Shown piece by piece: positions 3,730 through 58,559 of a stretch of DNA of 64,000 nucleotides. The DNA comes from an uncultured Gammaproteobacteria bacterium (GTDB lineage Bacteria > Patescibacteriota > Patescibacteriia > JACQRZ01), in contig CAZUKY010000005.1 of assembly GCA_964621085.1 (NCBI GenBank), positions 4,991-68,990 on the forward strand. Direction: 5' to 3'. Position numbers and translations under genes: made by a program. The notes below the pieces were generated by a model. It was not told the DNA's origin and searched no databases. It saw nothing but the letters and a program-made list of their open reading frames with translations. Positions within the stretch are counted from its first letter, which is position 1. Each line of letters opens with the position of its first letter.

Positions 3730-4143
3730 GTGGAACCGCCGACATCCTACTACGCCCAGCAGGTGGATCACATCGTCTACCGGGAAATAGCACCGAACAT
3801 CTTCGAGATCGGATCACAGCCGGACGGAAGTCTTGGTAAACTTAAGGAAGCCGACTGCCGTATCATGGACATCATCTACCAAAACAACGGCAACGGCGGC
3901 GCGGCGAAGGACCGTGTCCTCGTCAACTTCGCGCGCTTCGCGCGAGGGGAACGGTCGGAATGGGTCATCGCGAGCGCCTACTTCATCCGTGCCGACGGGC
4001 CGGGCATGTACGGAAAGCGGCTCGCGCTCGAGGAGTGCTCGCCGGAAATCGAGGAGATGCTCTCGGCAGTCCTGCTCGAAAATGGCTCGCTCCGTCGGAA
4101 CTTCTTCATCCGCAACAATACGAAAATAGTCATTCGTCAATGA
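3730..4143 (+). CDS. Hypothetical protein (137 aa), GTG start
   Basis: SD AAGGAGG 7 nt upstream of GTG at 3730; protein-like composition; no family recognised. Confidence 0.5.
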   Translation: MEPPTSYYAQQVDHIVYREIAPNIFEIGSQPDGSLGKLKEADCRIMDIIYQNNGNGGAAKDRVLVNFARFARGERSEWVIASAYFIRADGPGMYGKRLALEECSPEIEEMLSAVLLENGSLRRNFFIRNNTKIVIRQ

Positions 4144-4412
4144 CGAGGGCGTCTGCACGAGGTGCGCCAATTCCGGCCGCGCCTCGTTTCTCTTTCTATT
4201 TAAAACATTTCAGAGAAAACACCCTTGACACATCCGGCCTCTCATGAGATACTGAACAGACTAATCCATAATGCGACAAGCCTATGACATTCGATGATGT
4301 CCAGGAGCAGGAAGTTGCTCAGCAGCCGGCTGATGACGGCTCAGAGGCTTCGGAAGGCCAGGAAGACGGCGCTTCTGAGGAGTAGGCCTACGGCCTCCCG
4401 ATAGCATTAGAA

Positions 4413-4468: not shown

Positions 4469-6331
4469 TTAGGATCGCCCGTCGGACGATTCAACGAGAA
4501 GTTTCTGCCCTTCGCTCACGCCGGTAAGGACCTCTGTCTGCCCGTCGCGAGAACGGATCCCAAGCGCTACCGGCACGTCCCTTGTCTCGCCATTTTCATA
4601 GACCTTCACAAAAACTCCCTTCTCGCCGTCGAACACTGCGGCGTTTGGAATAAGCACCGCGTTATGTTTCGTCGATACGATGATCGCGACGGTTGCAGTC
4701 ATGCCGCTTGAAATCCGTTTCTCGGCCGTGTCGAGCGCGACATATGCAACGGCATTCAGTACTCGATCACCTTGCCGCTCGCCTTGTTCTATGCGGGTAA
4801 CGCGGCCGCCGAACCGTTCTCCTGAAATCTCATCAAAGGTCAGCTGCACCGGGTTGCCGACGGCAACCTTCCCCATGCCATCCTCCGGTACGACCGCGCG
4901 GACAAGAGGACTCGTCCCGGTGCCGATTGTGGCAAGCGACGTTCCGGGACCTACGACTGCCCCCTCTGTAACTGACACACTCAGAACGTTCCCGTCGATC
5001 GGCGATGCGACCGTGACCGTCCCGCCGTGCCGTGCAAAGGCAGCGTTTTGAAGCTCGAGTGCGTTGATGCGCGCCTTCTGTTGTATGATAAGTGACTGGG
5101 TATTTTGAATGCGTGCCTCAAGCTGGATGACTCTGGCTTGTTTCTCGCTGACCGTCTGCACTTTCGGCTCGAGAGCCGCCGCGGAGACCGTCTGTAATGC
5201 AGCCTGTTTGGCTGGTGGATTTTTCATAATAAAGTCAACGTACCACTGCGCATGTGCGATCCGCTCTGCGCTCGCCTTTTTCTCGCGTGCAATCGCATCC
5301 CGCCGTGCCGAGAGCTGTGCAAGCGCGTCTGCGATATTTGAGCGAGACCAGAGCACTTTATTTTTGTAATGGCTCGCGGTTGCAGATGGAATGTTTTCGG
5401 CGACGTCCAGTGCGGCTGCGAGGCGGGTCAGGTACGTCCGCACCGTCTCCCCGTTTTCCAGCGCAATGATGATGCCGGTATCAAGGCCATTATAATCGAA
5501 CGCGTTTGCGCCGAGTCGGACACTCTGCAGTGAGTGAGCCGCGGAGAGCGCATTCGCTCGCCGCTCCCGCAGCTCGGCGGCGGTAGGGCTCACGCCAGGA
5601 CGCATTGCAAGCCATGTGTCCGATCCGGAAAACAGTTCCTGAGAATACTGGCCGACGGCATCGAAAGCGCGCAGATGAAGCAAGGCAAAGACCTCCGGCA
5701 CGGGCGCGTAGACGCGCGCCAAATCTTCTCGTGCCTGCTTCTTTGCGTCCTCAAGCGCAGCAAGCGCCTCTTGCTTCTGCTTCTCATAGGCGGACGCGCT
5801 GGGCGCTGGCGATACGTGTTTTGGCGCAGGCGGCTGAGGCGAAAGCGATGTGGGTGCAGACGGGACTGGTGTCGACGGTTTTGGCGATGGTGTTAGTTTC
5901 CGAGGTTGCGGCGACTCGACGGCAACCGTCTGCGCTTTTTTGATTCGGGCCAACAGCGCTGTATCTTCTGAAAGAGTTTTCTCGAACGAGCGCAGGCGCG
6001 TCCGCTCTTCAGCAAGGCTGCGCGCAAGGGACTCGGACGTCGCGGCCGCATTATCCAGCCGGATCTCGATCAGCGCTTCTCCTCTTTTGATTGGCGCGCC
6101 ATCTTTTCGGTGGACCTTTGTCACACGACCTTTTGCCTCGCCCTTTAACTCTATGGACTGTGCGGCATCGACAACACCCGCAGCAAGCACCTCCTCGGAA
6201 ATATCGCCACGGACCACGCTGACGATATTCGGGGGTTCTTCGCGCTTTTGCGAAGAAACAACGGCAAAAACTCCCGCCCCGGCCGCGAGAAGCGCAAAAA
6301 ATGCGATTCCTTTTCTTATAATCATATGCAA
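4469..6331 (-). CDS. HlyD-family membrane fusion protein / periplasmic adaptor subunit
   Basis: N-terminal TM, long coiled-coil, Pro/Ser-rich linker, C-terminal beta-barrel/lipoyl-like region typical of MFP adaptors. Confidence 0.75.
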   Translation of the reverse strand: MHMIIRKGIAFFALLAAGAGVFAVVSSQKREEPPNIVSVVRGDISEEVLAAGVVDAAQSIELKGEAKGRVTKVHRKDGAPIKRGEALIEIRLDNAAATSESLARSLAEERTRLRSFEKTLSEDTALLARIKKAQTVAVESPQPRKLTPSPKPSTPVPSAPTSLSPQPPAPKHVSPAPSASAYEKQKQEALAALEDAKKQAREDLARVYAPVPEVFALLHLRAFDAVGQYSQELFSGSDTWLAMRPGVSPTAAELRERRANALSAAHSLQSVRLGANAFDYNGLDTGIIIALENGETVRTYLTRLAAALDVAENIPSATASHYKNKVLWSRSNIADALAQLSARRDAIAREKKASAERIAHAQWYVDFIMKNPPAKQAALQTVSAAALEPKVQTVSEKQARVIQLEARIQNTQSLIIQQKARINALELQNAAFARHGGTVTVASPIDGNVLSVSVTEGAVVGPGTSLATIGTGTSPLVRAVVPEDGMGKVAVGNPVQLTFDEISGERFGGRVTRIEQGERQGDRVLNAVAYVALDTAEKRISSGMTATVAIIVSTKHNAVLIPNAAVFDGEKGVFVKVYENGETRDVPVALGIRSRDGQTEVLTGVSEGQKLLVESSDGRS

Positions 6332-6426
6332 TCAGGCTCAAAACTTCAAAAAAGCCCTGTCACTGTAGCAGAGGTTTTTCCCAAACGCAAACGCTCGAAT
6401 ATCCTTCATTTCATAGGCTGTATGTA

Positions 6427-6455
6427 TTGACTTTCCCCCCTTATTCGTCTATACT
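6427..6455 (+). promoter_or_regulatory. Sigma70-like promoter for the zinc-ribbon gene
   Basis: TTGACT (6427-6432), 17-nt spacer, TATACT (6450-6455). Confidence 0.55.
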
Positions 6456-6546
6456 GGGTGTACGATCACTTGAGGCGAAAAATACGATGAATACGAAAAG
6501 GTCGGTTCACCTCACGACGATTCGATACTCTTAATCAGGTGAACCT

Positions 6547-6792
6547 ATGTACGACCAGAACAATCAGGGTCCTGCCCCGATGCGTCAGCTGTTTGACGTC
6601 ACGTCGCTCAACCTGACCTGCACCGAGTGCGGAGCGGCTATCGAAAAGCTGCCGTTCCAACCGACGGAAAAGGAAGACGGGACCTACGGCCGCATCTATT
6701 GCCGCGACTGTAACCGCAAGCGCCGCGAAAAGTTCGGCGGCCCGCGCAGCTTCGGTGGCCCGCGCCGCGACTACAATCAGGAAGCTGCATAA
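6547..6792 (+). CDS. Small zinc-ribbon protein (CxxC...CxxC)
   Basis: 81-aa ORF with CTEC...CRDC pairs and a Gly/Arg-rich tail; SD AGGTGA upstream. Confidence 0.6.
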   Translation: MYDQNNQGPAPMRQLFDVTSLNLTCTECGAAIEKLPFQPTEKEDGTYGRIYCRDCNRKRREKFGGPRSFGGPRRDYNQEAA

Positions 6793-7295
6793 ATTTCCTG
6801 AAACACGAAAAGACCCCGGTCATCCGGGGTCTTTGTCGTTAAAACGTTTTTCAGTTCTCTTCAGACCCTCAAGAACGCTATTTCCAAAAATAAAAACCCT
6901 CTTGCAGACGGCCATGGGGGGCCATAACCGTCTAAAAGAGGGTGGCATGCACAATCCCTATCCCACTCAGAACGCGCATCCGCATCGCTCTTCGCATGGC
7001 GAATGAAAATCCTGAGTGGGACGAGGAAAACCTCATCCCAGGGGTCTCTTCTTGAAAGAGCGGTGAGCGGGATCGTGCCAAGGACGAACAAAATGCCGAC
7101 TCTGACCACCGTTCCCCCCACTACGATGATGAGTTTAGCATTGGTTGATTGGTATGTCAATGGGTTTTTTGACAATTTACCAGAGAAATTGCTATTTTCT
7201 TTTTATTTATAACAAAAATATACTCTTTTTCGACGAAAAAATATCGTATTTTTGTCTTCCTGAGCCTATAAAAAATCCGGTTGTCCACAGAACTA

Positions 7296-7324
7296 TTGAC
7301 AAGCTCTAGCTATTTATCTATACT
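7296..7324 (+). promoter_or_regulatory. Near-consensus sigma70 promoter
   Basis: TTGACA (7296-7301), 17 nt, TATACT (7319-7324); no + strand protein gene downstream. Confidence 0.6.
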
Positions 7325-7331
7325 GCTATAT

Positions 7332-7790
7332 TATTCCCGAACTTCCGGAAGGTTGGGGTTTTTGCAGTAAGCTGCACTCAGCAATAAGGAACTGAAGGGA
7401 ATAAGGGGTGAGTGCGCGCCCCGGTGAGGCGTGCATAGCAAAAAAACGAAAGGAGGAACCCTATGAGCGGGAAGATCAGGCTTAGCGCCTACAAGCCCGG
7501 GCCAGATCGCCGATGCCACGAGAGTGGTGGCGGCGGAGGCCTGTAGCCCCTCCCGCGGGTGTCTGTCGTCGATAACGTCCCCGGTTGTCGATCATTTCCA
7601 AGCAGTTGGTACACGCCTTACAGCGTGCACCAGTAACTTCGGCTAAGACAGCCATACGTTACGAAACAGAAGGGCGCATCAAGCCCAACATGAGACCATC
7701 GCGACCCTAGGGCGACACCTGCGGCCCGAGGCTCATGCATCCCTTGGCCTCGGTGAGAGAGAACCTCTCCACCGGGGCCTATTTACATTC
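7332..7790 (+). ncRNA. Candidate structured noncoding transcript, unassigned class
   Basis: About 460 nt GC-rich with no ORF of 60 aa or more on the sense strand and multiple hairpins. Carries a consensus SD plus a 27-codon ORF (7463-7546). Convergent with the TrmB-like gene. Confidence 0.3.
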
Positions 7791-7798
7791 TAAAATAC

Positions 7799-8545
7799 TT
7801 AATCCGTAGGAAGATCCTTGCTGCCTTGCAGCGCAAGATCGAAAAGAAGGCGGAATGTATTTGCAAGCGTCTCACTTTCAATGAGAATCGTGTACATCTT
7901 TCCTTGGAACGTCGTAATGTCGATCTTCTTTCCGTAGACGCTAATACTGGACTTAAAGCCGCCCTTACTGTCCGGCAAAAAATAGCGGTTTGATTTTGCC
8001 GTCTTACCGGCTGGGGCGCCGGAATAAATGCCGTAAAATTCGGTACGGGCCTTCTTCAAGTGCTCCTGCAACGATTGCACGTCCTTTTTATCAAGAGTGG
8101 ACAAGAGCGCCTCTAAGTCGGTCAGTTCGTAGCAGGTCTTTTCCTGCAAAAATTCCATATCCGTAATATATGCGTGCACTCCTTCTTTCCCTTCGATCAC
8201 CTTTACGGTCGGGCGTTCCCCTCCCTGAAGAAGGTTAAGTTCCGGCATCGCGCGCTCGATATCTGACGCTTTATCCCGAAATTCGAGCTCTTTGCGCTTG
8301 ACGTATGAGTACAGTTTTTCCGGCGGCTCGGCGATATAATAACGTTTTTTGCCCTTGGTAACCGTAGACATGAGACCCTTTTCTACCAACGTCTCGATGG
8401 CATTGTAGATCGTCTGGCGCGAGAGTCGCGTCTTTTTTGTAATATCGATCACGGTGCTGGGGCCGGTCTCCAGCACATTTAGATATGTCTTCGTCTCGCC
8501 ATCGGAAAATCCCAGCGAGCGAAAGATTGGCGTCATGTCTGTCAT
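7799..8545 (-). CDS. TrmB-family transcriptional regulator (paralog 1)
   Basis: N-terminal winged-HTH ([41 protein letters not shown]); start overlaps the ruvB stop (ATGA). Confidence 0.8.
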
Positions 8546-9996: not shown

Positions 9997-10208
9997 GAGA
10001 GAACCTCCCTTTCGCGGACCTTCGAGGCAAGATATCGCGCGACACCTTCAACCCCTTTCGGAAACTCGCAGATATTCGGATCTCCGAAAGAGGGGGAACA
10101 CGTTTCCATGTTCCCGGTCGCCGAGCGCAATCGCATTGCGATACTCGAGGCGACGCCCGTTTTTTAACGAGGTATATGCGGTCCTCGTGGCGATGCGATA
10201 TCGCCAAA

Positions 10209-10564
10209 TGGTGGAGATGGCGGGAGTCGAACCCGCGTGTCTCAGAGTTTTTCGTACCATCGTCTACGAACGTGTCTCCTTTCTTCAAAGGAGCAAAGCA
10301 GCGCTGCTATGGATCAGCGCATCCCCCTTCAGAAATTCGCTCTGGAGGGAACGGCTCAGCACGTTATCTTGAGATCTGACCGCCGTGCCAGCAATCAGAT
10401 CCGCATCCTCTCCTTAACGTCATTTTGGCGTACGAGGTGCTCCACCAATGACGGGGTGGCTTAGGCCGCCGCGGTTGTTTTTTTGAGCCTGATTTTACGG
10501 GATCGGACTCACTCCCGGCTCGCAGATGATACGCCTCGCTCAAGAGCGAAACCGTTACATCCCC
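10209..10564 (-). ncRNA. ssrA: tmRNA (SsrA), one-piece, CCA encoded
   Basis: 5' GGGGATGTAACGGTTTCG and 3' GCGGGTTCGACTCCCGCCATCTCCACCA; acceptor stem with the G3:U70 alanine identity pair; T-arm GGTTCGACTCC. Confidence 0.85.
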
Positions 10565-11109
10565 TCACGCACCAGTGCCGGCGCTGGGGCGAGAGGGAGT
10601 GTCCGATTCGTCGATGCGCATCAAAGACAACCCTTCTTCAGATGACAAACACGGAATCATCTGAAGAAGAGGCGCAACCTGATGGGAGTTGCGCGTAGTA
10701 CCTGCTCACTGGCCGACCGTTGGTCGGTTTCACACGCTGTGGGCGGGTAGTCGCCCCTGGTTTACCTGCACCAGAAGGACGTTGGCACGTCACCGTTTCC
10801 CGGCACACGTCGGGCGCCCCTTCGATCGTCATGAATGTGTGGACTCAGACGCAGCCGCAGTCACAGCCTCAGACGAGCTCCTCCCCGCAGACCCAGACAC
10901 AGGCTGGTATCCATGGGTGCGGGAGTCGCTCCGAGATGTGAGGCGGAGCCGTCTGGCTCAGCATCATTCATCAGGCGCAAGAAGCGCCCAATGCCATCTT
11001 GTGACATGACGACCGAAGGGTGGCGCTTCGAGCCCATCCGCGAGACGAACATCCTTCTCGGTGTTCGTCTCGTGTCAGGCTCTCCGCACCCAAGCCCGGG
11101 TGTGGCCGC

Positions 11110-12051
11110 CTACTCCGTGCGGACCTGCAGACCTGCAATCTCTTGCAGGGCCTGCTGGCGCAGCGTTTCGGCGGCCGACCGGAGGCGCTCCATCTCCAGC
11201 TCGTAGGCTTTCACCTCGAGCTGGTAGGCCCCGAATTCGGCTTGGTAGCGACGCTCATGCGCGAGGTTGTACTCGCGCACGGCGTCCTTGATCTGCTTCC
11301 GACAGCTGTTCAGCCGCTTCTGCAGATCGTCGTACCGCGCCTGGAGCTCGTCGCGCATGCGCGAGAGCCCCTCCAGGGCCCCGGAGTCGTACGCCCGCTC
11401 CCACGTGGTGATGATCACCCCGTTTTGGGTCGGCTGCTCGCTGCCTTTCGGCAAGGGAGCGGCCAACTTGCGGAAGAAGGCGCCGTTCTCCGAGAGGAGC
11501 TTTCCGATCGCCGCGGCCCGACTGTTCAGTCCGATCGCCTCTTGCCAGAAGGCGAAGTCGAACTGCGCGAGCACCTCGGGGCTCAGGTTCTCGATCATCT
11601 CATCGATGCTCGAGAGGTCCATGAACCTTCTGGTGTCACAGGTCGAGCCGCTCTTGGGCGCGGCTGGCTGCTGCGGACGCTGAGGCATGGCCTCGGCCAC
11701 GAAGGGCCGGAGGTCCATGGTCTCGAGCGCGTCGCGCAGCCGCTGATGCAGCTTGAGGCCGTGCATCAGCGTCGCCGTCTCGGCGTTGCGCTCGGCAACC
11801 GCGTCGACCCCCCGAAGCTCCTCGGGAGTGACGGTGGTGCCGCGCAGCGCGCGAGGCGAGCTGTCGCCGCCGCCCAGGAAGGAAACCGCCTTGACGAACA
11901 CCCCGGCGATCGCATCGTCGATCAAGCTCCAGAACCCGTCGTTCTTTTGCTTGTTCTCCGCCTGGATCCGTCCCACCTGGGACACCGAGGTGCCCGCGGG
12001 GGCGAGGAAGGTGGTGACGAGAGCGCCGAAGATCTTCGTGAGGCTTTCCAT
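11110..12051 (-). CDS. Hypothetical protein (313 aa) with a C-terminal coiled-coil, in a high-GC island
   Basis: SD AAGGAG 7 nt upstream; very high GC3 codon usage; the opposite-strand ORF is an R/L/G/H-rich shadow. Confidence 0.6.
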   Translation of the reverse strand: MESLTKIFGALVTTFLAPAGTSVSQVGRIQAENKQKNDGFWSLIDDAIAGVFVKAVSFLGGGDSSPRALRGTTVTPEELRGVDAVAERNAETATLMHGLKLHQRLRDALETMDLRPFVAEAMPQRPQQPAAPKSGSTCDTRRFMDLSSIDEMIENLSPEVLAQFDFAFWQEAIGLNSRAAAIGKLLSENGAFFRKLAAPLPKGSEQPTQNGVIITTWERAYDSGALEGLSRMRDELQARYDDLQKRLNSCRKQIKDAVREYNLAHERRYQAEFGAYQLEVKAYELEMERLRSAAETLRQQALQEIAGLQVRTE

Positions 12052-12302
12052 TTTCTTACTCCTTCTCTGAGGGTTGCTCGGACAGCACAGACCGTTTCTG
12101 CGCTATTTTCCCCTCTCCTAAAACCGCAAGTGCTGCGGACTTAAGAGAGGGGTGCCACCCCTCAGGAGATCGCTTGAAAGAAAAGAACAAAGGGTTTCCC
12201 CTTCTTCCGATGTCTTTTTTGAAGACAGCGAAAGAAGAGGGTGCAAGTGTGTCTTGCACCTTTTGCGCGATTCTCCTTTCTTTGCGTGCGACGTGGCGGC
12301 GA

Positions 12303-13137: not shown

Positions 13138-13890
13138 TTAGTCCGAGGGAAATTTCTTTGCGGTCTCTGTTGCAAGTTTAAAAAGAATGCGGAGGGTTTG
13201 CGCCAGGGCTTCATTCTCAATAATCACGGATTGGATCCCTCCCTTTACCGATACGAGAGAAATCTTATTTTTATAGATAAGCACGTCTGTCCCGAAGTTC
13301 CCGTATTCTTTTGGCAAGTAGTGGCGAATCGAGCGCGCACTTCTGCCCTTTGGCGCACCCGTAAGCAGGCCATGGAAAGAAATGGTCTTGTTTTCTAAAA
13401 GTTTTTTTCGGATCAGGGAAACATCTGTTTCGTCAAAAATGGCATAAATGGCATCGAGGTCGGCGATCTCGTAAATGATTTCATTGTCGGTGGTTGACGC
13501 CATGTCCATGAATACCTGCATAGCACCCTCCTTGCCGTCATACACGCGGACCGATGTTTGTTGGGTGGCCTTTTTAAGCTTCAACTCAGGAAGAAGCTCT
13601 TTCAAATCTGACTCGAACTGCGACAGCTCGTGCGCCTTGCGGCTGATATATTGCCCGATTTTTTCGGGATCGTCGACGACGTAGTATTTTTTCTTTCCTC
13701 GTGTAACACTGGACATCAGTCCTTTATTCGCCAAAGACTCTACGGCAACATATGTCGCTTGCCGAGAGAGTTGCGTGTATTTGGCAAGATCAATAATACT
13801 GGTAGTCCCTCTTTCAAGGGCAACAAGATACGTCTTAATCTCACTTTCGAGAAATCCGAGCGACTTGAGTAGAGAGTGAATGGTCTGCAT
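13138..13890 (-). CDS. TrmB-family transcriptional regulator (paralog 2)
   Basis: Aligns along its full length with the 7799-8545 product (same HTH, same C-terminal domain). Confidence 0.8.
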   Translation of the reverse strand: MQTIHSLLKSLGFLESEIKTYLVALERGTTSIIDLAKYTQLSRQATYVAVESLANKGLMSSVTRGKKKYYVVDDPEKIGQYISRKAHELSQFESDLKELLPELKLKKATQQTSVRVYDGKEGAMQVFMDMASTTDNEIIYEIADLDAIYAIFDETDVSLIRKKLLENKTISFHGLLTGAPKGRSARSIRHYLPKEYGNFGTDVLIYKNKISLVSVKGGIQSVIIENEALAQTLRILFKLATETAKKFPSD

Positions 13891-15709: not shown

Positions 15710-16159
15710 TTGCCTTCGCGTATGAAAATCTCGCATAAAAATGAAGAATTAGCAGCACTTCTGAAAACCGCGGGGTTTCGGGTAACCCATGGCGCATTAG
15801 CCGTTTTGGAAGTTTTGTCAGGCAGCTCGCGGCCGCTGACCGTTCAGGATATCGAGAAAAAGCTTGGAAAAAACCTTAATACGGCAACGGTGTACCGCAT
15901 GCTTGAGAGATTAAAGAAAGCCGGGATCATTCGCCATGTCGACTTTCTCCATGGGCATGCCCATTATGAGATGAATGACAAGGATCACCATCACCTCGTC
16001 TGCTCGATCTGCACTACGGTTGAGGAACTTGAAGGATGCATGATCGAGGACTTGGAACGGAAAGTGGCAAAATCAAGCAAGACTTTTTTGTCGGTAACCG
16101 GACATTCGCTGGAATTTTTTGGCGTGTGCAAAAAATGCGCAACACGTAAAGCGCTATAA
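15710..16159 (+). CDS. Fur-family metal-responsive transcriptional regulator
   Basis: N-terminal HTH; HHHLVC...C and CxxC metal-site motifs. Confidence 0.8.
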   Translation: MPSRMKISHKNEELAALLKTAGFRVTHGALAVLEVLSGSSRPLTVQDIEKKLGKNLNTATVYRMLERLKKAGIIRHVDFLHGHAHYEMNDKDHHHLVCSICTTVEELEGCMIEDLERKVAKSSKTFLSVTGHSLEFFGVCKKCATRKAL

Positions 16160-16684: not shown

Positions 16685-16974
16685 CGTCTCCTTTCTGCAC
16701 TGCGCACTAGCGAGAGTATAGCGCCCGCAGAATAAAAAAAGAAGGGCTGATCTTTCCTATGCGCCTTTTCGTTTTTTCTCCTCATCCGTGCGGACCTTGG
16801 AACGCTTCCGTTTTGTTTTGCCGTACCAATACTTTTCCTTGCGCCCCTCAGCCCACCAGAGCCAACGCTTAAGGTACGAGGGTATGCGTTTCCGAGACAT
16901 ATGAAGGCATATGTAAGATATACGTGAATCGGGCACGTATATATGAAGGAGCGTACCGACGCACTTCATCTGCT

Positions 16975-18186
16975 ATGGGAAAATACAGCATCAAAGACAT
17001 CGTCCGGCCGTTTGGCGATCAGGCCGTCTGCACACCGGAAACGCCGCTCGGAACAGCCGCCGACCTGGTACGCACGAGCTTCGAACCGATCTTTGTTTTT
17101 CGTGAATTGCCGCTCAGAGGAGCGCCGCACGGCCTGGTCGGCATCATTTCCATGTACGACGCGCTGTATCTGAAAGAAATGGCGCGCACAACGCGCGCAG
17201 AACACGCCTGCTTTCCTCCTCCGCACCTGACGGCACGCTCAAGCGCATACGATGTTGCCGCCGAGATGGTTGCCCGCCGATTGAACGTGCTGCCCGTTTT
17301 TTCAGACAACGGAGAGATTGGCGGTATTGTTGCGGCTGCCGATCTTGTTCGCGCATTCCTGCCGACAGAACTCGGCGCGCGAACGCTCATGGCGCTTCAA
17401 CCGGAAGAAGCCGTCGCGATTCCATACGAGAGCTGCGTGAAGGATGCCTTTCATGCGCTTCGCGACCGCGGCATTTCGGAAGTCCTTGTGCTTGCGGAAA
17501 ACGGCGCCGTTGCTGGCATCGTCTCACGCGAAGACATCATCAAAGCGCGCGCGAAACCCACGGCTCGCCAGCGGCATACGTCTCGCGGCAACAAAGAAGA
17601 ATTCCCAAAGGAAGAATTCTACGGTACCGAGTTCGTGTCGCAGGACTACTATCCTCTGCGGCGCTACTACCAACCGGCCGTTTCCGTGGAACGGGATTCG
17701 GAGCCAACCTACGAGCACCTGGCTGACTATATTCATAAACTGACCGAGACACCCTATTCGAATCTCGTCCTCATCGACAGGGATGCACGCCCGCGCGAGC
17801 TGATAACCTACCAGGATATTCTTGAAGCGATCCTCCGAAGCCGGCCAACCGTCGAGATTCCCATACTCGTCCACGACCAGCGGGAACGGTTCAGTGCCAT
17901 CGAGCGCGACCGTATCCTTGAAGTCATGGAATCGTTTTACGAGTCGTATCACCGCCGTACGCCCATGGATCATATCGTCATCAGCTTTGAGGAGTCGCGC
18001 ACGCCCAGCAAGACGATCCGTGCGATCCAAGTGACGATAAAAGCCATCTTGAAGTCCGGACGCGTGATGGTCACGAGGTCCGAACGGCACGACGCCATGA
18101 CCGCCTTCCGCGACTCGTTCAAGGAGATCAAAGCGCAGCTCGACCGATTGCACGGCAAGATTCAAGAACATGCTATCGATAAGTGA
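16975..18186 (+). CDS. CBS-domain protein fused to a C-terminal HPF/RaiA-like ribosome-associated factor domain
   Basis: Four CBS-like repeats in the first 300 aa. The last 110 aa align with the hibernation-promoting factor fold (HIVISFEESR...DAMTAFRDSFKEIKAQLDRLHGKIQ). Confidence 0.7.
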   Translation: MGKYSIKDIVRPFGDQAVCTPETPLGTAADLVRTSFEPIFVFRELPLRGAPHGLVGIISMYDALYLKEMARTTRAEHACFPPPHLTARSSAYDVAAEMVARRLNVLPVFSDNGEIGGIVAAADLVRAFLPTELGARTLMALQPEEAVAIPYESCVKDAFHALRDRGISEVLVLAENGAVAGIVSREDIIKARAKPTARQRHTSRGNKEEFPKEEFYGTEFVSQDYYPLRRYYQPAVSVERDSEPTYEHLADYIHKLTETPYSNLVLIDRDARPRELITYQDILEAILRSRPTVEIPILVHDQRERFSAIERDRILEVMESFYESYHRRTPMDHIVISFEESRTPSKTIRAIQVTIKAILKSGRVMVTRSERHDAMTAFRDSFKEIKAQLDRLHGKIQEHAIDK

Positions 18187-18234
18187 CGGGCTGCCTCTTG
18201 ACTGTGCGTCGCTGCACAGATAGAGTTCCCTCAC

Positions 18235-18567
18235 ATGCGCAGCACTATGAAAAAAAACACAATAAAAAAAATCGAGGTGTGCCACGGACCGACCTGTGGG
18301 CCGAATGGTGCGAATGAGATTCAACGCAAAATCTCAGAAGCATTCAAGGGCAGCGGAACAGAAGTTATCGGGCGCGGCTGTTGCGGACGATGCCAGTTCA
18401 ACAATACCATCGTTGCGGACGGCCAGCCGATCAGCAAGCTTTCCCCTAAAACGGTTCAAGAAAAATTCGTCGACGACCCGGATACTGCCATCGCAGCCGC
18501 GCGAGAGACAGACGCGGAGATACTCAAGGAACTGGATGCGTTTCTCAGGAACGACTCGGTCTATTAA
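18235..18567 (+). CDS. Thioredoxin-like [2Fe-2S] ferredoxin family protein
   Basis: Cys ligand pattern VCHGPTCGPNGA ... CCGRC. Confidence 0.55.
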   Translation: MRSTMKKNTIKKIEVCHGPTCGPNGANEIQRKISEAFKGSGTEVIGRGCCGRCQFNNTIVADGQPISKLSPKTVQEKFVDDPDTAIAAARETDAEILKELDAFLRNDSVY

Positions 18568-18690
18568 AACTCCTCGCGGTTTTCCTCTCCATGGAGGTAC
18601 CGTTATCCACACCGCAGCAAAGTGTGGTATACTTTAGACAGTTATCGCGAATTTTTTCGCGCCTCTTTTCTCGCAGCGCACACGCCGCAT

Positions 18691-19128
18691 ATGCTCAAAC
18701 TTCTTTTTCAATCGCCACGAAACAGCGATCTCGGGTCCGAAGAAACGGACGATGACGCGCTCCATTGGCAATCGCTCAAAGACGGCGGGTTGCAGATCGA
18801 TATGTATGAGCGACCGGATGCGATTGTTGTCCGCGCGCACGCCGCCGGCGTTGAGCCTGATAATTTGCATATCTCGATTCATAACGATCTTCTCACGATC
18901 CGCGGCGAGCGGCGCGAAGATGAGATGGTCGCGGACGAAAACTACTACGCACGCGAGTGCGCATGGGGCGCATTTCAACGCACGGTTGTGATTCCAGCTG
19001 CTGTTCAGGCCGAGCAGATCCGCGCATTTTTCAAAAACGGTATCGTAACGATCGAGCTTCCCAAAGTACAGGAAGAAGACGACTCGTCGTCATATAGCGA
19101 TGAAGACGATTCTTCTGACGAGTTCTAG
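18691..19128 (+). CDS. Hsp20/alpha-crystallin small heat-shock protein
   Basis: Alpha-crystallin domain (LQIDMYERPDAIVVRAHAAGVEPDNLHISIHNDLLTIRGER); extended -10 TGGTATACT at about 18611-18619 places the start at the Met at 18691. Confidence 0.85.
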   Translation: MLKLLFQSPRNSDLGSEETDDDALHWQSLKDGGLQIDMYERPDAIVVRAHAAGVEPDNLHISIHNDLLTIRGERREDEMVADENYYARECAWGAFQRTVVIPAAVQAEQIRAFFKNGIVTIELPKVQEEDDSSSYSDEDDSSDEF

Positions 19129-48559: not shown

Positions 48560-51500
48560 TCAAGCGGATTGCTGAGCCTCTTGAGTGGCGGGCGAATCAG
48601 GCTGCTGAGTCGTCATTCGGTTGTCTGAGTCAGGGAGGCCCGGTGGCGGGGCCAAGCTGGCCGCATCGGAATAATTCTGAGACAGCGATGCCGGCTCAAC
48701 GGATTGCACTATTGGTGACGACGCGTCAGACGGCTCTCCGGAAAGCGGCTGAAGGGGGACATTGATCTTTAACATCGTGTTCTTCTTTTTCAGCGTTACG
48801 ACCTCGCCCATGTATGCGTTCTTCTTCTTTGGTCGCTCGGCAGGCGGAAACGCGTATCGGTCTTTGGCGGCGCGCAAAATGTAGGATCCGGGCGGCGTGA
48901 GAAAGCTGAAACGGCCATGGTAATCCGACAGGCGCGTTCGCAAGAGCTTATTGTCTGGGGACTGAAAGATCGAGATTGCAGCGAGCGGAATCGGTTCGAG
49001 CGTTAACGCATCGAAGACGACGCCCCAAGGCTTTTCGATGCGAGAGGAAAGAATGTACTGGCCCACAAAGAGCGCAGCGCCAAGAATGAGAAGGGTTGTA
49101 TTCAGGGCGCTTGGCGTATAGACGGTCAGAACTCCGCTGATGACAAGACTTCCCATAATCAGGAACCGCGTCGAGCGCTGCAGCGAGGCAAAGGCGCGGC
49201 GCAGCGGCGAGTGAAACGCACCCGGATTCGGCGGGTCGAGCGGAATGCTCATGTTCAAGATCTGGTCCGGGTGCGTAATCTCGAATGAATCGCCCCGGTA
49301 CACGTCCGCATACGCGTCATCGCGCGAACCTGTCACGATCTCAGAAGGGAAATGAAACGGCGCCTTGCTGACACTAAGCTCATACGTTCCCGGTTGGGCA
49401 TAAAAGCTGAAACGCCCCGCCTTGTCGGTGACCTGCGTCTCGACAAGCTTCTTGCTCTGAGTAGAAATAAGGCGGACGATGGCAAGATCCACGGGATTTT
49501 TCGAGATAGCGTCGTACACGACTCCCCACGGCCGTCGGCGCTTCCGAATGCCAAGAACCGTCAAAAAGATTGAAAAGAAGTGGTTTGCGTAGTGATACCA
49601 TTGCAGAGTATTCGCGATGATCGCAGGATGCGTGAACGCGGCAACCGGTACCGCGACGGCGACGGTCGACTGCAAGACAGGCTCAGATGTCACGACTGCG
49701 GCGGCGACAGCAGTGTTGATCGCCGCACCGGTTGCCTTTGCCTGCTCGAGGGCTGGGCCGACCGTGCTCAGTATGTCCGCTTGCAGCGCCCCGCCGGTTA
49801 CGGAAGCAAAGAACCGAACTTGAGCCACCTGATCATCCGCATAGACGATTCGCAGAGTCAGCGGAGTCTTGCCTTTCTCGTCAGGCATTGACACTTTGCC
49901 CCGATAACAGGACCTTCGCTCATCCCATTCAAGCGCGGAGCGGTCACTTCCGAGCAGTACGGCAACCGCTTTCACGGTTTTCGGGAAAACCGTCTTTGAG
50001 ATGCAGACCTCATACGGGGTACGGGCGGGGGCGTAAAACTCGTTATTGCTATTGAGTCCGATGCGCTTGCCCGTGACATCGCTTGTCAACTGCACATCGC
50101 TTGGCATGATCGCTGTCTGCACGCCCTGCAAGGATGCCGCGGGCGTGACGGCGACCGATCGTGACTGCCGGTCAGCGGGTTGGGCACCCTCGATGCGCGG
50201 ATCGCCGAGCACTAAGAGATAGGTTAGGTGCGAGAGATTGCCGCTCACGGCATTTTTGCTCAAGGTGCTTTTTTCCGCTGCAAGCGTTCCACTGACAGGA
50301 TCCCACGAGAAGGCGCGAAGCGTCGCCGCATCAATATCTTCCAACTCGTCGGCGCGGAAAGTGATCGTATAAAAAAGAGGGTTTTCAAAACGTGTGATGG
50401 CATTGCCTGCCTGATCGTATGCCGTAATCAAATACACATGCGCTTTTACGGCCCGTTTCTCGGACGGTATGCGGACACCGGACCAGCTCCGCGCCTGCTG
50501 AATGGAGACGTTCTTGATATCGAACGTATACATGCTCGCCTTTGCCTCAAATGCGGACGGCGGCGTTTTTTGCGCAAGATCAATATCTATTCCCGCAAGG
50601 GTTGCTGTCGCGAGCTTTGCGCCACTCGGCGCTTCGCCGCGCAGGAATTCACTACTCTGACGCGGCACGACAATATCGAGTCCCATGCCGTCTTCGCGCG
50701 TAACCGTAATGCGACGACTCTCATTTGTCGGAATAACGACCCGCTGGGGCGCAGCAAGCCGGATCGACAGCGGTGCGGTACGATCGTCTTTTTCAGGAGT
50801 CTCGACTTCTTCTTTGACTGACGGCTCATCAGCAATAAGTGCGAGCGCTGGCAGTGGCTGCACAGGCGGCGGCGGAACGAAGCGAGAGACGACTCTTTCT
50901 ATTACACTGCCGGATGCAGCCGGCTGAGGGGCTTGCGGCGCGCTTCTTGTTTCTTGGGCTGCCGGCTTTTCTTCTTTCGGTTCTGTGACTGGATCAGGCT
51001 CTTTTGGCGGTGATTCCTGTTTCGCGACCGGAGGAACTGCTGGCGGCGGCTCAGGAACGCTACCGGTTGCTCCAACGAGCATGACATTTGTAAGACTGAC
51101 GTCGTTGCCGGCCGCCAGCCAGACAGGCTTGCCGCACCACTTTGTGTTGTCATTTTGACAAACGAAAGTCGACGCAGTGACAAGCTGCCGCGTACCAGTG
51201 CTTTGAAATGTCGCATGGGTACCGATTTCGATCGTTACGGTCGCTCCTGCGGCAACCGCCGTACCGGATGACGGAAAAGAAAATGTTACCGTTTTCAAAC
51301 TTGAATCAACCGCAACTCCCCACACACTCACGCCAGCAGCGCTTGCAAGCGTTGCGTCAGTGCCACTGTAACTCAAGTCGATGTCAGTGTAATCTACCGA
51401 ACCGGTACTTGATATCAGGTTCGCAAGGTCCAACTTGATCCGCTGTCCGCTCGAGACGCCGGACGTTGCGACAAAAGAAATCGTATGATTCGCGGCAGCA

Positions 51501-51631
51501 CTCGCTGTCGCGGACGACACCACATAGGTGATATTCGAAAGAGAATTTGCATGCGCGGAAAATGGCGCAACGAGAATAGAAACGATCCCAAAGACGCACG
51601 CGGTACGCAACACAATTTTTTTCATACTCAT
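48560..51631 (-). CDS. Large secreted/envelope multidomain protein (surface-cluster protein 1)
   Basis: Signal peptide; N-terminal domain paralogous to the next two genes; Pro-rich linker; C-terminal region with TM helices and two carboxypeptidase-regulatory-like repeats (RxxPWGVV[YF]DA...GRFSF). Confidence 0.7.
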   Translation of the reverse strand: MSMKKIVLRTACVFGIVSILVAPFSAHANSLSNITYVVSSATASAAANHTISFVATSGVSSGQRIKLDLANLISSTGSVDYTDIDLSYSGTDATLASAAGVSVWGVAVDSSLKTVTFSFPSSGTAVAAGATVTIEIGTHATFQSTGTRQLVTASTFVCQNDNTKWCGKPVWLAAGNDVSLTNVMLVGATGSVPEPPPAVPPVAKQESPPKEPDPVTEPKEEKPAAQETRSAPQAPQPAASGSVIERVVSRFVPPPPVQPLPALALIADEPSVKEEVETPEKDDRTAPLSIRLAAPQRVVIPTNESRRITVTREDGMGLDIVVPRQSSEFLRGEAPSGAKLATATLAGIDIDLAQKTPPSAFEAKASMYTFDIKNVSIQQARSWSGVRIPSEKRAVKAHVYLITAYDQAGNAITRFENPLFYTITFRADELEDIDAATLRAFSWDPVSGTLAAEKSTLSKNAVSGNLSHLTYLLVLGDPRIEGAQPADRQSRSVAVTPAASLQGVQTAIMPSDVQLTSDVTGKRIGLNSNNEFYAPARTPYEVCISKTVFPKTVKAVAVLLGSDRSALEWDERRSCYRGKVSMPDEKGKTPLTLRIVYADDQVAQVRFFASVTGGALQADILSTVGPALEQAKATGAAINTAVAAAVVTSEPVLQSTVAVAVPVAAFTHPAIIANTLQWYHYANHFFSIFLTVLGIRKRRRPWGVVYDAISKNPVDLAIVRLISTQSKKLVETQVTDKAGRFSFYAQPGTYELSVSKAPFHFPSEIVTGSRDDAYADVYRGDSFEITHPDQILNMSIPLDPPNPGAFHSPLRRAFASLQRSTRFLIMGSLVISGVLTVYTPSALNTTLLILGAALFVGQYILSSRIEKPWGVVFDALTLEPIPLAAISIFQSPDNKLLRTRLSDYHGRFSFLTPPGSYILRAAKDRYAFPPAERPKKKNAYMGEVVTLKKKNTMLKINVPLQPLSGEPSDASSPIVQSVEPASLSQNYSDAASLAPPPGLPDSDNRMTTQQPDSPATQEAQQSA

Positions 51632-51686: not shown

Positions 51687-53486
51687 TTACCTGCGCACCA
51701 GAACGCCAACGCGCCTGCGCACGCGCACGAAGATACCGATCCCGCTCAAGACGATGCCGAGTACGGCTGCCGTGCCGAGAAGCACCGCTGACTCCTTTTT
51801 TTGGGGAGCTGCCGGCTGTACTTCTTCTTGCGCTCCTGCGCCATCTTCTTTTGCGCCCCTTTGCCTGTCGAGAGCATCGCCGATAAGCGCAAAAATACTG
51901 AAGTGATCGACAGTTGCTGTTACGGCATTGCGATTCACATCAACAGATGAATCGAGCGCTTCCCAGAGACGCGTAACAGGATTCCAGTAGTGTATGCGCA
52001 GCGTACGCTCGTCAATGGCTTCGACGGCGGAGTCGTCATACCGAATGGTGATGCGCGCCACCTTTGACAACGCATGGACGCCGGCGTCGTTCACGAAAAG
52101 AGAAATGTCGTACAGTGTATTCCCGGGAATATTTTTCCCGTCCGGAACGAATAATCCGGTCTCTGTTTCCCGCGCCTTTTCGAGCGCAAGCGGCACAATC
52201 GCTAAGCGATAGGCAGAAGGCACCGCCCCAGCTGGCAACGATACATCAGCACCCGATGATGCATCGGCCCCAAGCGAGAATGCGCCGGCAGCGTTCGCGG
52301 CAAAAAATTCAGATTCTCGTCCTGATGTCGAAGAAGAACCGCCGCTTGCTGGTGGCGGAGAGGCGGGGGATGGCTCGCGTACACCCGAAAACACAGATGA
52401 ATTTGTTGGAGTGCCGGTTGTCACCTGAGGAGTGGAAGATGGCGCGGCAATCGAACGGGAATCCGACGGTGAAGTCGAAACTCTGTCCGTCTCAGTCGTA
52501 TCCGAGTCAGCAGACGTCTGATCGTCCAGTAAGGAGGGCTCATCTTTTTTCAGCGCGTCCGTCGGCGTACTCGACTGCTGACCCGATGCCTCAGACGGCA
52601 CAACAACCGCGCCCCCGCTCAATGCCGTCGTTGTTACTGTCACAGCTGGCGCATACGCGCTCTCCAACGCCCCGCGGACAGCTCGAATACGATAGCGGTA
52701 CGTCGTCTTCTGCTCTGCCGAGCTATCCGTATACTGCCCACCATTCGCATTGACGGTCGCGAGAAGCGAATAGATATTATCCGTTCCTGCGCGTTCGATA
52801 CGATACTGCTCAGTGCCGCCGCCGTTTGTCGAATCGACCCATGTAAGACGAGCAGACCCATCGACAAGCGCCTGCACACCGAACTGTGTCGGCGCAAGCA
52901 ATGCCACACTCACGCCAATACTGACTGAATCTTCCGAAACAATAGCAACGGCGATATTTCCGGAGTCGGGACCTGCCGTAATACTGATTTTGCGGCTTCC
53001 GATTTCCGCAGTATTGAGAAATTGACGATCTCCGGTTGCCTGTACAGATGCGTTGGTGCCGATCATAATGATGACTCGATCTCCCGCAATGATCGGAGTG
53101 CCGCTACTTACGGGATAGGAAAACGTCACCTGTCTCGTATTGGCATCAAGGGCAATGCCCCAAACTCCGCTTCCTGGCGCTGATGCGAGCTGATAGGAAA
53201 CCTCCTGTCCTGCCGCGCCGTACGCCAGATCAATATCTGTCTCGTCTAGACCATTGAATGATGAAACCGCGGCACTCATATCAAGCGTGATGGTGCCGCT
53301 ACTCATACCGCTTGCTGAGATGAAAGAAATCGTATGATTACTTGCAGTCCCCGCCTTCAAGCGACTCATCGTATCGCTCGCACGTGTAAGTCCTGCTGAA
53401 GAAACTGGGCCTGCTGTGACAAGTACGGCAAAAAACCCGGCGATCGCACCGATTACGAACAACGGTTTCACGTCAAAACCAGTCAT
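51687..53486 (-). CDS. Secreted cell-surface protein with C-terminal TM anchor (surface-cluster protein 2)
   Basis: Signal peptide; N-terminal domain SDTMSRLKAGTASNHTISF...; Ser/Pro-rich linker; a second beta-domain shared with protein 1; TM plus basic tail. Confidence 0.7.
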   Translation of the reverse strand: MTGFDVKPLFVIGAIAGFFAVLVTAGPVSSAGLTRASDTMSRLKAGTASNHTISFISASGMSSGTITLDMSAAVSSFNGLDETDIDLAYGAAGQEVSYQLASAPGSGVWGIALDANTRQVTFSYPVSSGTPIIAGDRVIIMIGTNASVQATGDRQFLNTAEIGSRKISITAGPDSGNIAVAIVSEDSVSIGVSVALLAPTQFGVQALVDGSARLTWVDSTNGGGTEQYRIERAGTDNIYSLLATVNANGGQYTDSSAEQKTTYRYRIRAVRGALESAYAPAVTVTTTALSGGAVVVPSEASGQQSSTPTDALKKDEPSLLDDQTSADSDTTETDRVSTSPSDSRSIAAPSSTPQVTTGTPTNSSVFSGVREPSPASPPPASGGSSSTSGRESEFFAANAAGAFSLGADASSGADVSLPAGAVPSAYRLAIVPLALEKARETETGLFVPDGKNIPGNTLYDISLFVNDAGVHALSKVARITIRYDDSAVEAIDERTLRIHYWNPVTRLWEALDSSVDVNRNAVTATVDHFSIFALIGDALDRQRGAKEDGAGAQEEVQPAAPQKKESAVLLGTAAVLGIVLSGIGIFVRVRRRVGVLVRR

Positions 53487-58276: not shown

Positions 58277-58353
58277 GATTTTCCTCTGGTGGGCCAGGAA
58301 GGACTCGAACCTTCGACCGATCGGATATAAGCCGACTGCTCTAACCGACTGAG
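58277..58353 (-). tRNA. tRNA-Ile with anticodon TAT (UAU), CCA encoded
   Basis: Acceptor GGGCCAG/CTGGCCC, D-arm TAGCTCAGTCGGTTAGAGC, anticodon loop CTTATAT, T-arm GAAGGTTCGAGTCCTTC, CCA. Confidence 0.8.
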
Positions 58354-58559
58354 CTACTGGCCCGCGCAATCGTGCGGAAATATACACAGACCCTCCAAGA
58401 TCAATATATCGCAATAAGATGCTCTGGTCAAAAAACCATAAAAAGATTTATTTTGTAATTTTTTCGGCTGTGATACAATAAAGCACGAAGGCAATCCTGG
58501 TATTGTCTGTTTTGGTTTATCTGTGCTTGTTGAGCAATGATTTGTTTCTAAAATCCACT

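Follow-up and report, generated by a model that had tools for sequence, protein, structure and literature searches.

The DNA analysed here (the window) is a 64-kb stretch of contig CAZUKY010000005.1, and the subject of this report is one complete gene on its forward strand (Table 1), which encodes a protein of 403 amino acids (aa) with four CBS repeats in its N-terminal part and a C-terminal domain with the fold of the ribosome hibernation factors HPF and RaiA. From sequence profiles, structural models and analogy with characterised proteins, we consider it likely that this gene encodes a bacterial member, from the Patescibacteria, of the two-module ribosome hibernation factors known as HibA and AHA.

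HibA, i.e. Pyrococcus abyssi PAB0961 and T. kodakarensis TK1186 (PDB entries 9SR9-9SRF and 9T7H), has been described by Madru et al. (Nat Commun 2026) and is present in 47% of archaeal genomes (PMC13324472), and AHA is the product of Haloferax volcanii HVO_2384 (Souza et al., bioRxiv 2026; PMC12934967). In both, a module of four CBS repeats, whose CBS3 bears a long loop, makes up the N-terminal part and is followed by a C-terminal HPF/RaiA domain. Cryo-electron microscopy (cryo-EM) has shown the 30S subunit with the HPF domain lodged in its mRNA/tRNA channel, and the CBS module on the 50S subunit, where the loop enters the peptidyl-transferase centre (PTC) in one conformation, and deletion of the genes leads to late recovery from stationary phase and to depletion of 70S ribosomes or ribosomal proteins (PMC13324472, PMC12934967). 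HibA binds AMP (Kd 12 uM), ADP and ATP (PMC13324472), and AHA has been seen with two AMP molecules (PMC12934967). One sentence of the AHA preprint mentions a few bacterial homologues, mainly in Patescibacteria (PMC12934967); beyond Souza et al., we found in the literature no paper linking Patescibacteria to the HibA/AHA family.

A complete gene with an N-terminal CBS module

The open reading frame (ORF) is intact. An alternative in-frame GTG upstream, at 16924, would give a product of 420 aa; the start at 16975 is favoured because a public protein that is 100% identical to the window protein (P0001) is also 403 aa long, and because two relatives, P0002 and P0003, share the same initiator methionine in the alignment. 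The gene boundaries given in an earlier reading of the window, made from the sequence alone (the sequence-only reading), are thus retained. An antisense ORF of 266 aa overlaps both the intergenic region and the 3' half of the gene. Its sole support is its open frame; most likely, the GC-rich coding strand casts a shadow ORF here. A scan for promoters and terminators returned no more sites than were found in shuffled sequence.

Pfam recognises four CBS stretches in the 403-aa protein (E=1e-19, 71 bits against a cut-off of 24), and the AlphaFold model contains four beta-alpha-beta-beta-alpha units, i.e. two Bateman pairs, within residues ~1-290, so that the four CBS repeats noticed earlier are now well founded. 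The PDB structures closest to this tetrad in a Foldseek search are SriA (9znf_4, E=7e-14) and Dri (9e6q_3, E=6e-13), followed by AMPK-gamma; as Foldseek with the whole chain returned CBS tetrads only, the C-terminal domain was modelled alone. G-x-[IVL]-[STA]-x2-3-D motifs are found at residues 56, 117 and 181, D187 is conserved in 96% of the family, and by analogy AMP, ADP or ATP is probably bound where CBS3 and CBS4 meet. The module has an isoelectric point (pI) of 5.6 and the C-terminus one of 9.45. We considered the acidic module, set against a family median of 9.6, as an oddity of the window protein and rejected the idea, since P. abyssi HibA is alike (5.16 and 9.69 for the two parts, respectively).

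A C-terminal domain with the HPF/RaiA fold

The AlphaFold model of the C-terminal domain alone has a predicted local distance difference test score (pLDDT) of 89.7 and shows the exact HPF/RaiA topology (beta297-301, alpha308-326, beta331-342, beta348-359, beta364-371 and alpha374-402), and the same topology is found at residues 297-402 of the full-length model (pLDDT 78). When the domain model was compared with the PDB by Foldseek, the top 15 matches were all HPF, RaiA or protein Y (pY) structures, with a probability of 1.0 and template modelling (TM) scores up to 0.86; they include Borrelia HPF (8fmw_W), chloroplast pY, A. baumannii HPF, M. smegmatis MPY, T. thermophilus protein Y and the N-terminal domain of S. 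aureus HPF. V. cholerae HPF (4hei) aligned to the model with a TM score of 0.86 and a root mean square deviation (rmsd) of 1.6 A, and unrelated folds started at E>0.01, with folds like the double-stranded RNA-binding domain (dsRBD) at E~0.07-0.17. The HibA entries were absent from these matches, the PDB copy used reaching up to 2026-04-08.

For sequence comparison, an alignment of the C-terminal ~105 residues of 55 diverse family members was used, which contains no CBS sequence (alignment A2). Scanned one by one, 40 of the 55 domains match the Pfam family PF02482 (Ribosomal_S30AE) at E<=0.1, the best of them at E=3.2e-9, and no other Pfam family is matched by more than one of the 55. The HPF homology of the window protein is transitive, as other family members score far better against PF02482, while the window protein itself stays below the threshold. 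Searched against the PDB, the A2 profile found protein Y/RaiA (E=0.0015-0.002) and HPF (E=0.005-0.01) at the top and HibA at E=0.061, and the chains 7m4z_v and 9t0z_9 were aligned over most of the domain. Pairwise comparisons were negative: BLASTP with the C-terminus returned nothing at E<=100 against E. coli HPF and nothing against the C-terminus of HibA, and phmmer with residues 290-403 against all PDB sequences returned no HPF or HibA chain, with chance matches only (RapA, endonuclease III). The earlier assignment of the last ~110 aa to HPF/RaiA is hence upheld for the fold, by the family matches and by Foldseek, and not for the pairwise support from E. coli HPF with which it had been argued; the register of that hand alignment is nevertheless the register of the alignment derived from hidden Markov models (HMMs). 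For the E. coli sequences in these comparisons, the PDB alignment bears out residues 56-88 of RaiA.

The domain is basic in most of the family, with a median pI of 9.8 and values above 9 in 82% of the members. The chain ends ~10 residues past the last helix of the HPF fold in the models, and no C-terminal dimerisation domain of the long-HPF type follows the HPF core in the 403-aa protein. Family profiles and predicted structure together confirm the C-terminal domain as HPF/RaiA at the level of family and structure.

Collinearity with archaeal HibA

A word-indexed protein search returned three further full-length relatives of the window protein, with 60, 43 and 26% identity, and when a 110-sequence profile was used in the same kind of search, generic CBS words drowned the result. 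Using hmmsearch with a 4-sequence alignment on a database of 1.84 billion cluster representatives (50% identity), we found 191 representatives at E<=1e-30, all hosts together; most of the 150 matches listed are 360-410 aa long and cover profile positions ~5-390, which span both modules. One member, in the cluster of P0132, bears the JGI/IMG name 'CBS domain-containing protein/ribosome-associated translation inhibitor RaiA'.

The best PDB sequence match of the window protein, used as a single sequence, is chain H of 9SR9 ('Dehydrogenase', 392 aa; E=2.4e-11). This chain is P. abyssi HibA, as the entry is listed in the HibA paper and the reconstructed fragment is 100% identical to P. abyssi P0174. 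The C-terminal part of this single-sequence alignment could be an over-extension from the CBS match and was not used as evidence. The 110-sequence profile aligns with the same chain in one stretch, from profile positions 14-380 to HibA residues 11-370 (E=2.2e-49), and hhalign against an alignment of Thermococcales HibA gave a probability of 99.9% and E=1.4e-35 over 356 collinear columns. The CBS-free alignment A2 by itself aligns with HibA residues 280-372 (hhalign, E=1.8e-5, probability 78%) with a single one-residue gap. The beta1-alpha1 region of the HPF domain (beta13-alpha11 in HibA) aligns with HibA without gaps; the bacterial HPF/RaiA alignments stop short of it. The 110-sequence profile also matches end to end a 406-aa PDB chain, 9l96_a ('CBS domain-containing protein'); no paper for entry 9L96 was found in the literature.

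The loop between CBS3 and CBS4 is part of this correspondence. By both the hmmsearch profile and hhalign, residues 194-235 are aligned to HibA residues 187-215, the stretch that holds the PTC loop (190-207), and in the alignment the loop takes the place of the HibA 'PTC loop' and the AHA 'loop 3'. It comprises 42 aa in the window protein, against a family median of 39 and ~30 in HibA, and carries a basic motif conserved in the family, K-P-T-x-[RK]-Q-R-F, with P195 in 82% and R200 in 75% of the members. AlphaFold models it as disordered, with pLDDT<50 at residues 197-221.

Taken together, the family matches to PF02482, the Foldseek results and the hhalign alignment to HibA bear out the fusion of a CBS tetrad with a C-terminal HPF/RaiA domain that the sequence-only reading had proposed. 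That reading could not place the fusion in a described family, a statement that it had itself made to depend on the fusion not being a common, annotated architecture; it is outdated, the same architecture being that of HibA/AHA, and the protein is not of a new kind. What is new here is modest: an uncharacterised member from the candidate phyla radiation (CPR), a clade that is seemingly larger than the 'small number' of the literature, and a PTC-type loop that is longer and differently conserved.

Several points weigh against the assignment to the HibA/AHA factors. The window protein's own match to PF02482 covers residues 337-396, i.e. the second half of Ribosomal_S30AE, and is sub-threshold, both in the whole protein (E=0.13, 13.4 bits against 23.7) and with the isolated domain (E=0.015, 16.4 bits against the gathering threshold of 23.7). 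Among 173 collected proteins, which score 16-97 bits against P. abyssi HibA with a median of 50, the subclade of the window protein is one of the most divergent (43, 25 and 16 bits pairwise). Compared with its HibA equivalent, the loop has ~12 additional aa and another motif, and it is modelled with low confidence; the bacterial members are known from sequence and predicted structure. HibA contacts the archaea-specific uS19 tail and eS28, so that the binding mode on the unusual CPR ribosome may differ. Furthermore, AMP or ATP caused no clear change in the ribosome binding of HibA (PMC13324472), so that energy sensing is conjectural; the coupling of energy charge to ribosome silencing in one polypeptide, as suggested in the earlier reading, is unproven even in archaea.

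Alternative explanations

A protein working like HibA/AHA could also have arisen outside that family, by an independent, convergent fusion of a bacterial HPF/RaiA domain with an unrelated bacterial CBS tetrad. The A2 profile finds bacterial RaiA and HPF slightly better than HibA in the PDB, the Pfam model that recognises 40 of the 55 members is mainly bacterial, and HPF variants fused to CBS domains have been reported in bacteria (10.1101/2025.11.04.686544). In these variants, however, the dimerisation domain at the C-terminus of long HPF is replaced, which we read as the opposite domain order, the order itself not being stated there. One alignment runs collinearly through HibA and the full protein and includes the domain order, the linker and the position of the long loop, and HibA tops the PDB sequence matches for the CBS part as well. 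Within the HPF domain, an HMM of 136 sequences scores the HibA C-terminus at 29.0 bits, against 22.9 for RaiA and 20.4 for HPF, and the beta2-beta3 hairpin, 29 aa long in the window protein and the family, is offset by at most one residue from HibA at the beta14-beta15 insertion site, whereas E. coli HPF needs a 4-residue gap. Bacterial AHA-like sequences were moreover placed inside the archaeal AHA cluster by Souza et al. (PMC12934967). We therefore regard an independent fusion as improbable.

Slightly less probable still is that the protein is a CBS-tetrad regulator with a non-ribosomal role, e.g. an HhpR-like transcription factor or a protein that binds a partner under nucleotide control, and whose C-terminal alpha/beta domain would have other nucleic acids or proteins as its targets. 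One relative is named 'predicted transcriptional regulator' by JGI, the NCBIfam model HhpR matches the CBS region weakly and far below its cut-off (E=4e-6, 26 bits against 520), the dsRBD-like folds appear as weak structural matches to the C-terminal domain, and the pull-down with HibA also brought replication and recombination proteins (PMC13324472). On the other side stand the 15 best structural matches, all of them ribosome hibernation factors with a clear gap to other folds, the closest characterised homologues, which are ribosome-bound in cryo-EM, and the basic character of the domain in most members; HhpR, as described by Souza et al., is one CBS tetrad, and an HPF domain is not mentioned (PMC12934967). 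The HibA/AHA assignment thus remains the one that we prefer for the gene.

Host and taxonomic spread

We infer from its sequence that the window belongs to a bacterial genome of the Patescibacteria/CPR, because it contains a transfer-messenger RNA (tmRNA) gene and tsaE, and because its valyl-tRNA synthetase is nearest to those of Candidatus Uhrbacteria metagenome-assembled genomes from groundwater (55-56% identity), followed by other Patescibacteria. The tmRNA, ~6.4 kb upstream of the gene, was matched at full length by Rfam (103 bits) and was not reported by ARAGORN. The window further encodes TsaD, FtsH, a type II/IV secretion ATPase, VanW and Fur. HibA and AHA have been surveyed as archaeal proteins, and the bacterial host lies outside this range, which is descriptive and not a structural criterion.

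The named members of the family include 'Patescibacteria group bacterium' (MBU2577276.1, MBU4481482.1 and MBU4299505.1), 'Minisyncoccales bacterium' (MGB2762692.1) and 'bacterium'. While the other named members are Patescibacteria, P0013 (HLL60528.1, 267 bits), on a 4.4-kb contig, is labelled as the archaeon Candidatus Nitrosocosmicus sp.; either this label results from mis-binning, or the clade mixes archaeal and CPR sequences. A scan of the GTDB representatives with the family alignment found no relative. That the gene is an ordinary archaeal HibA on archaeal DNA misjoined to a bacterial contig, by chimeric assembly or mis-binning, is hardly credible: P0013 is the one member with an archaeal label, whereas the GC content around the gene, which lies in the middle of the window, is uniform (0.54-0.56), tsaE, tsaD, fur and vanW lie within a few kb and the tmRNA not far upstream, other members stand beside bacterial genes, several being named Patescibacteria by NCBI, and no member is close to Thermococcales HibA (<=97 bits).

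Some further features of the window were noted in passing. A tRNA-Ile with the anticodon TAT (UAU) is encoded. In most bacteria AUA is read by a lysidine-modified CAU tRNA, a UAU tRNA-Ile being unusual, so that this tRNA may be informative on AUA decoding in this CPR lineage. A block beside the tmRNA has a GC content of 0.62, against ~0.54 elsewhere, and holds a 374-aa ORF without a Pfam match; as tmRNA genes are common integration sites, the block could be a foreign insert. Two large adjoining proteins, one without a Pfam domain and the other with only a CarboxypepD_reg-like domain, may be surface proteins. No second HPF-like ORF was found in the 64-kb window.

Gene neighbourhood

Upstream of the gene are fur, a tRNA-Glu and an unannotated minus-strand ORF, and downstream follow a gene for a Cys-rich protein, hsp20 and vanW (Table 1). 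Of the neighbours named in the sequence-only reading, Hsp20 is confirmed, while the 2Fe-2S ferredoxin-like gene is not: the Cys-rich protein has sub-threshold matches only, to PF01257 (thioredoxin-like [2Fe-2S] ferredoxin, E=0.023) and to NuoE/HoxE (E~0.01). The stress-response neighbourhood proposed there was kept in no relative examined, and as the Hsp20/ferredoxin context is not conserved it provides no evidence on function. A conserved 'stress' operon was likewise rejected as a candidate, the gene downstream of P0003 being unrelated to the Cys-rich gene and the other loci differing.

The gene for the closest relative, P0002 (60% identical; locus L001, 4855-6084), is flanked on one side by a gene for a small RelA/SpoT-type HD protein (3813-4334, minus strand, E=1e-10) and on the other by one for an ABC-F ribosome-associated, 'ribosomal protection-like' ATPase (6150-7652, plus strand; NF000355, E=1.5e-93, below the NCBIfam cut-off). 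This translation and stringent-response context is absent from the window; it is suggestive but comes from a single locus. RaiA and EttA have been reported as essential in one cultivated patescibacterium (PMC11665869). Bacterial neighbours are found at several loci of the family, these being either a sortase and a Mur ligase or an RluB-type pseudouridine synthase together with a RelA/SpoT HD protein.

In the subfamily of P0160 and P0161 (L085, 5089-9940; L086, 1211-6154), the gene is preceded, in divergent orientation, by a conserved gene for a protein of 926-942 aa without a Pfam domain, by two small ORFs and by an FAD-dependent oxidoreductase gene; a similar 447-aa HI0933-like oxidoreductase is encoded near P0002 in L001. 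Two TrmB-family helix-turn-helix (HTH) regulators are encoded within 10 kb upstream of the gene in the window and another near the homologue in L001 (2355-3125), which is probably a coincidence.

Table 1. Coordinates of the gene, its parts and other features of the window
Feature	Position	Strand	Description
CBS-tetrad/HPF-domain gene, complete	16975..18186	+	403 aa; ATG 16975, stop 18184-18186; ORF list
CBS module	16975..17844	+	Residues ~1-290; four CBS repeats (two Bateman pairs); Pfam, AlphaFold model, Foldseek
Extended loop between CBS3 and CBS4	17554..17679	+	Residues 194-235; aligned with HibA 'PTC loop' / AHA 'loop 3'; profile alignments
HPF/RaiA-fold domain	17860..18183	+	Residues 296-403; family Pfam matches, domain model, Foldseek, hhalign
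Fur	15710-16159		Upstream of the gene
Cys-rich protein	18235-18567	+	110 aa; directly downstream; C-x4-C ... CC-x2-C
Hsp20	18622-19128		E=6e-17
Antisense ORF	17524-18324	-	266 aa; most likely a shadow ORF
TrmB-family regulator	7799-8545	-	
TrmB-family regulator	13138-13890	-	
GC-rich block	10001-12150		Beside the tmRNA
tmRNA	10209-10564	-	Rfam
ORF in GC-rich block	11020-12144		374 aa
Large protein	48560-51631	-	1022 aa; CarboxypepD_reg-like domain
Large protein	51687-53486	-	598 aa; no Pfam domain
tRNA-Ile	58287-58363	-	Anticodon TAT (UAU)

Possible mode of action and significance

With the domain architecture, the HPF fold, the collinear homology to HibA and the bacterial host established, ribosome binding, the position of the loop on the ribosome, nucleotide binding and energy-dependent switching can only be inferred, by analogy with the archaeal proteins. 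If the archaeal cryo-EM structures are a guide, the A and P sites would be blocked by the basic C-terminal domain, placed in the 30S mRNA/tRNA channel, while the CBS tetrad would dock on the 50S subunit, from where the long CBS3 loop could reach the PTC. A single chain would thereby bridge both subunits, clamp the idle 70S ribosome and shield its active sites during starvation. Regulation by adenylates is speculative.

A broader scenario, which we put forward tentatively and regard as rather doubtful in its entirety, is that the Patescibacteria carry a large, hitherto unsurveyed HibA/AHA clade that came from archaea and was refitted to bacterial ribosomes with the longer P-T-x-R/K-Q-R-F loop, where it may stand in for canonical HPF/RaiA as the chief hibernation factor, possibly one that responds to adenylates. 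If true, this would be the first archaeal-type two-subunit hibernation factor on a bacterial ribosome, in a clade that sits in ultrasmall, host-dependent bacteria. So far, HibA/AHA has been portrayed as the counterpart in archaea of bacterial HPF, and a sizeable set of homologues in Patescibacteria would mean that the two-subunit clamp operates, or persists under selection, on bacterial ribosomes as well. The family would then bear on whether HPF-type hibernation goes back to the last universal common ancestor or spread by transfer, on the extent to which HibA/AHA depends on archaea-specific ribosomal contacts, and on how the CPR bacteria, with their reduced genomes and unusual ribosomes, keep their ribosomes idle between hosts. 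As a reagent, a HibA-like protein from a bacterium could be used with ribosomes of E. coli or Thermus, on which the dependence on AMP/ATP would be easier to work out than with archaea that are hyperthermophilic or halophilic. For the window itself, the main consequence is that the annotation 'CBS domain-containing protein' should read 'HibA/AHA-type ribosome hibernation factor'.

Comparison with known systems

HibA shares with the window protein the collinear profile alignment, the pattern of an acidic CBS module and a basic C-terminus, and the long beta2-beta3 hairpin. It differs in its archaeal host, in sequence (profile-level identity of ~19% overall and ~18% in the HPF domain) and in its loop, which is ~12 residues shorter and lacks the P-T-x-R/K-Q-R-F motif of the window family; moreover, its contacts with the uS19 tail and eS28 cannot all exist on a bacterial ribosome. 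AHA, likened here by its published description, has the same architecture of CBS tetrad and HPF domain, and the extended CBS3 loop.

Bacterial HPF/RaiA proteins (YfiA, protein Y) have the same C-terminal fold (TM scores of 0.6-0.86, rmsd 1.6-4 A) and share a conserved x-Q-L motif in the last helix with the window domain, which presumably uses the same 30S site. On the other hand, their identity to it is 7-17%, their beta2-beta3 hairpin is shorter, and they are without the 290-aa N-terminal CBS tetrad; long HPF carries in addition a dimerisation domain that the window protein is without.

The ribosome-bound CBS-tetrad factors Dri of Pyrobaculum calidifontis (9E6Q/9E7F) and SriA-D of Methanosarcina acetivorans (9ZNF/9ZNG/9ZNI) are structurally closest to the tetrad of the window protein, and their sequences are matched by the family profile at E=1e-41 to 1e-30. 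No HPF-domain match was found in them, however, and Dri has been described with two CBS tetrads; the Sri proteins, again by description, are tetrads that stand alone. AMPK-gamma, the eukaryotic energy sensor, has a four-CBS fold like that of the window module (Foldseek E~1e-12), and the AMP sites of AHA correspond to its regulatory sites according to Souza et al. (PMC12934967); it differs in that it regulates a kinase and is without an HPF domain. Finally, the bacterial HPF-CBS variants (10.1101/2025.11.04.686544) combine HPF and CBS domains as the window protein does, but they are by description derivatives of long HPF, which we read as having the HPF domain first, whereas in the window protein the CBS tetrad comes first and the HPF domain last.

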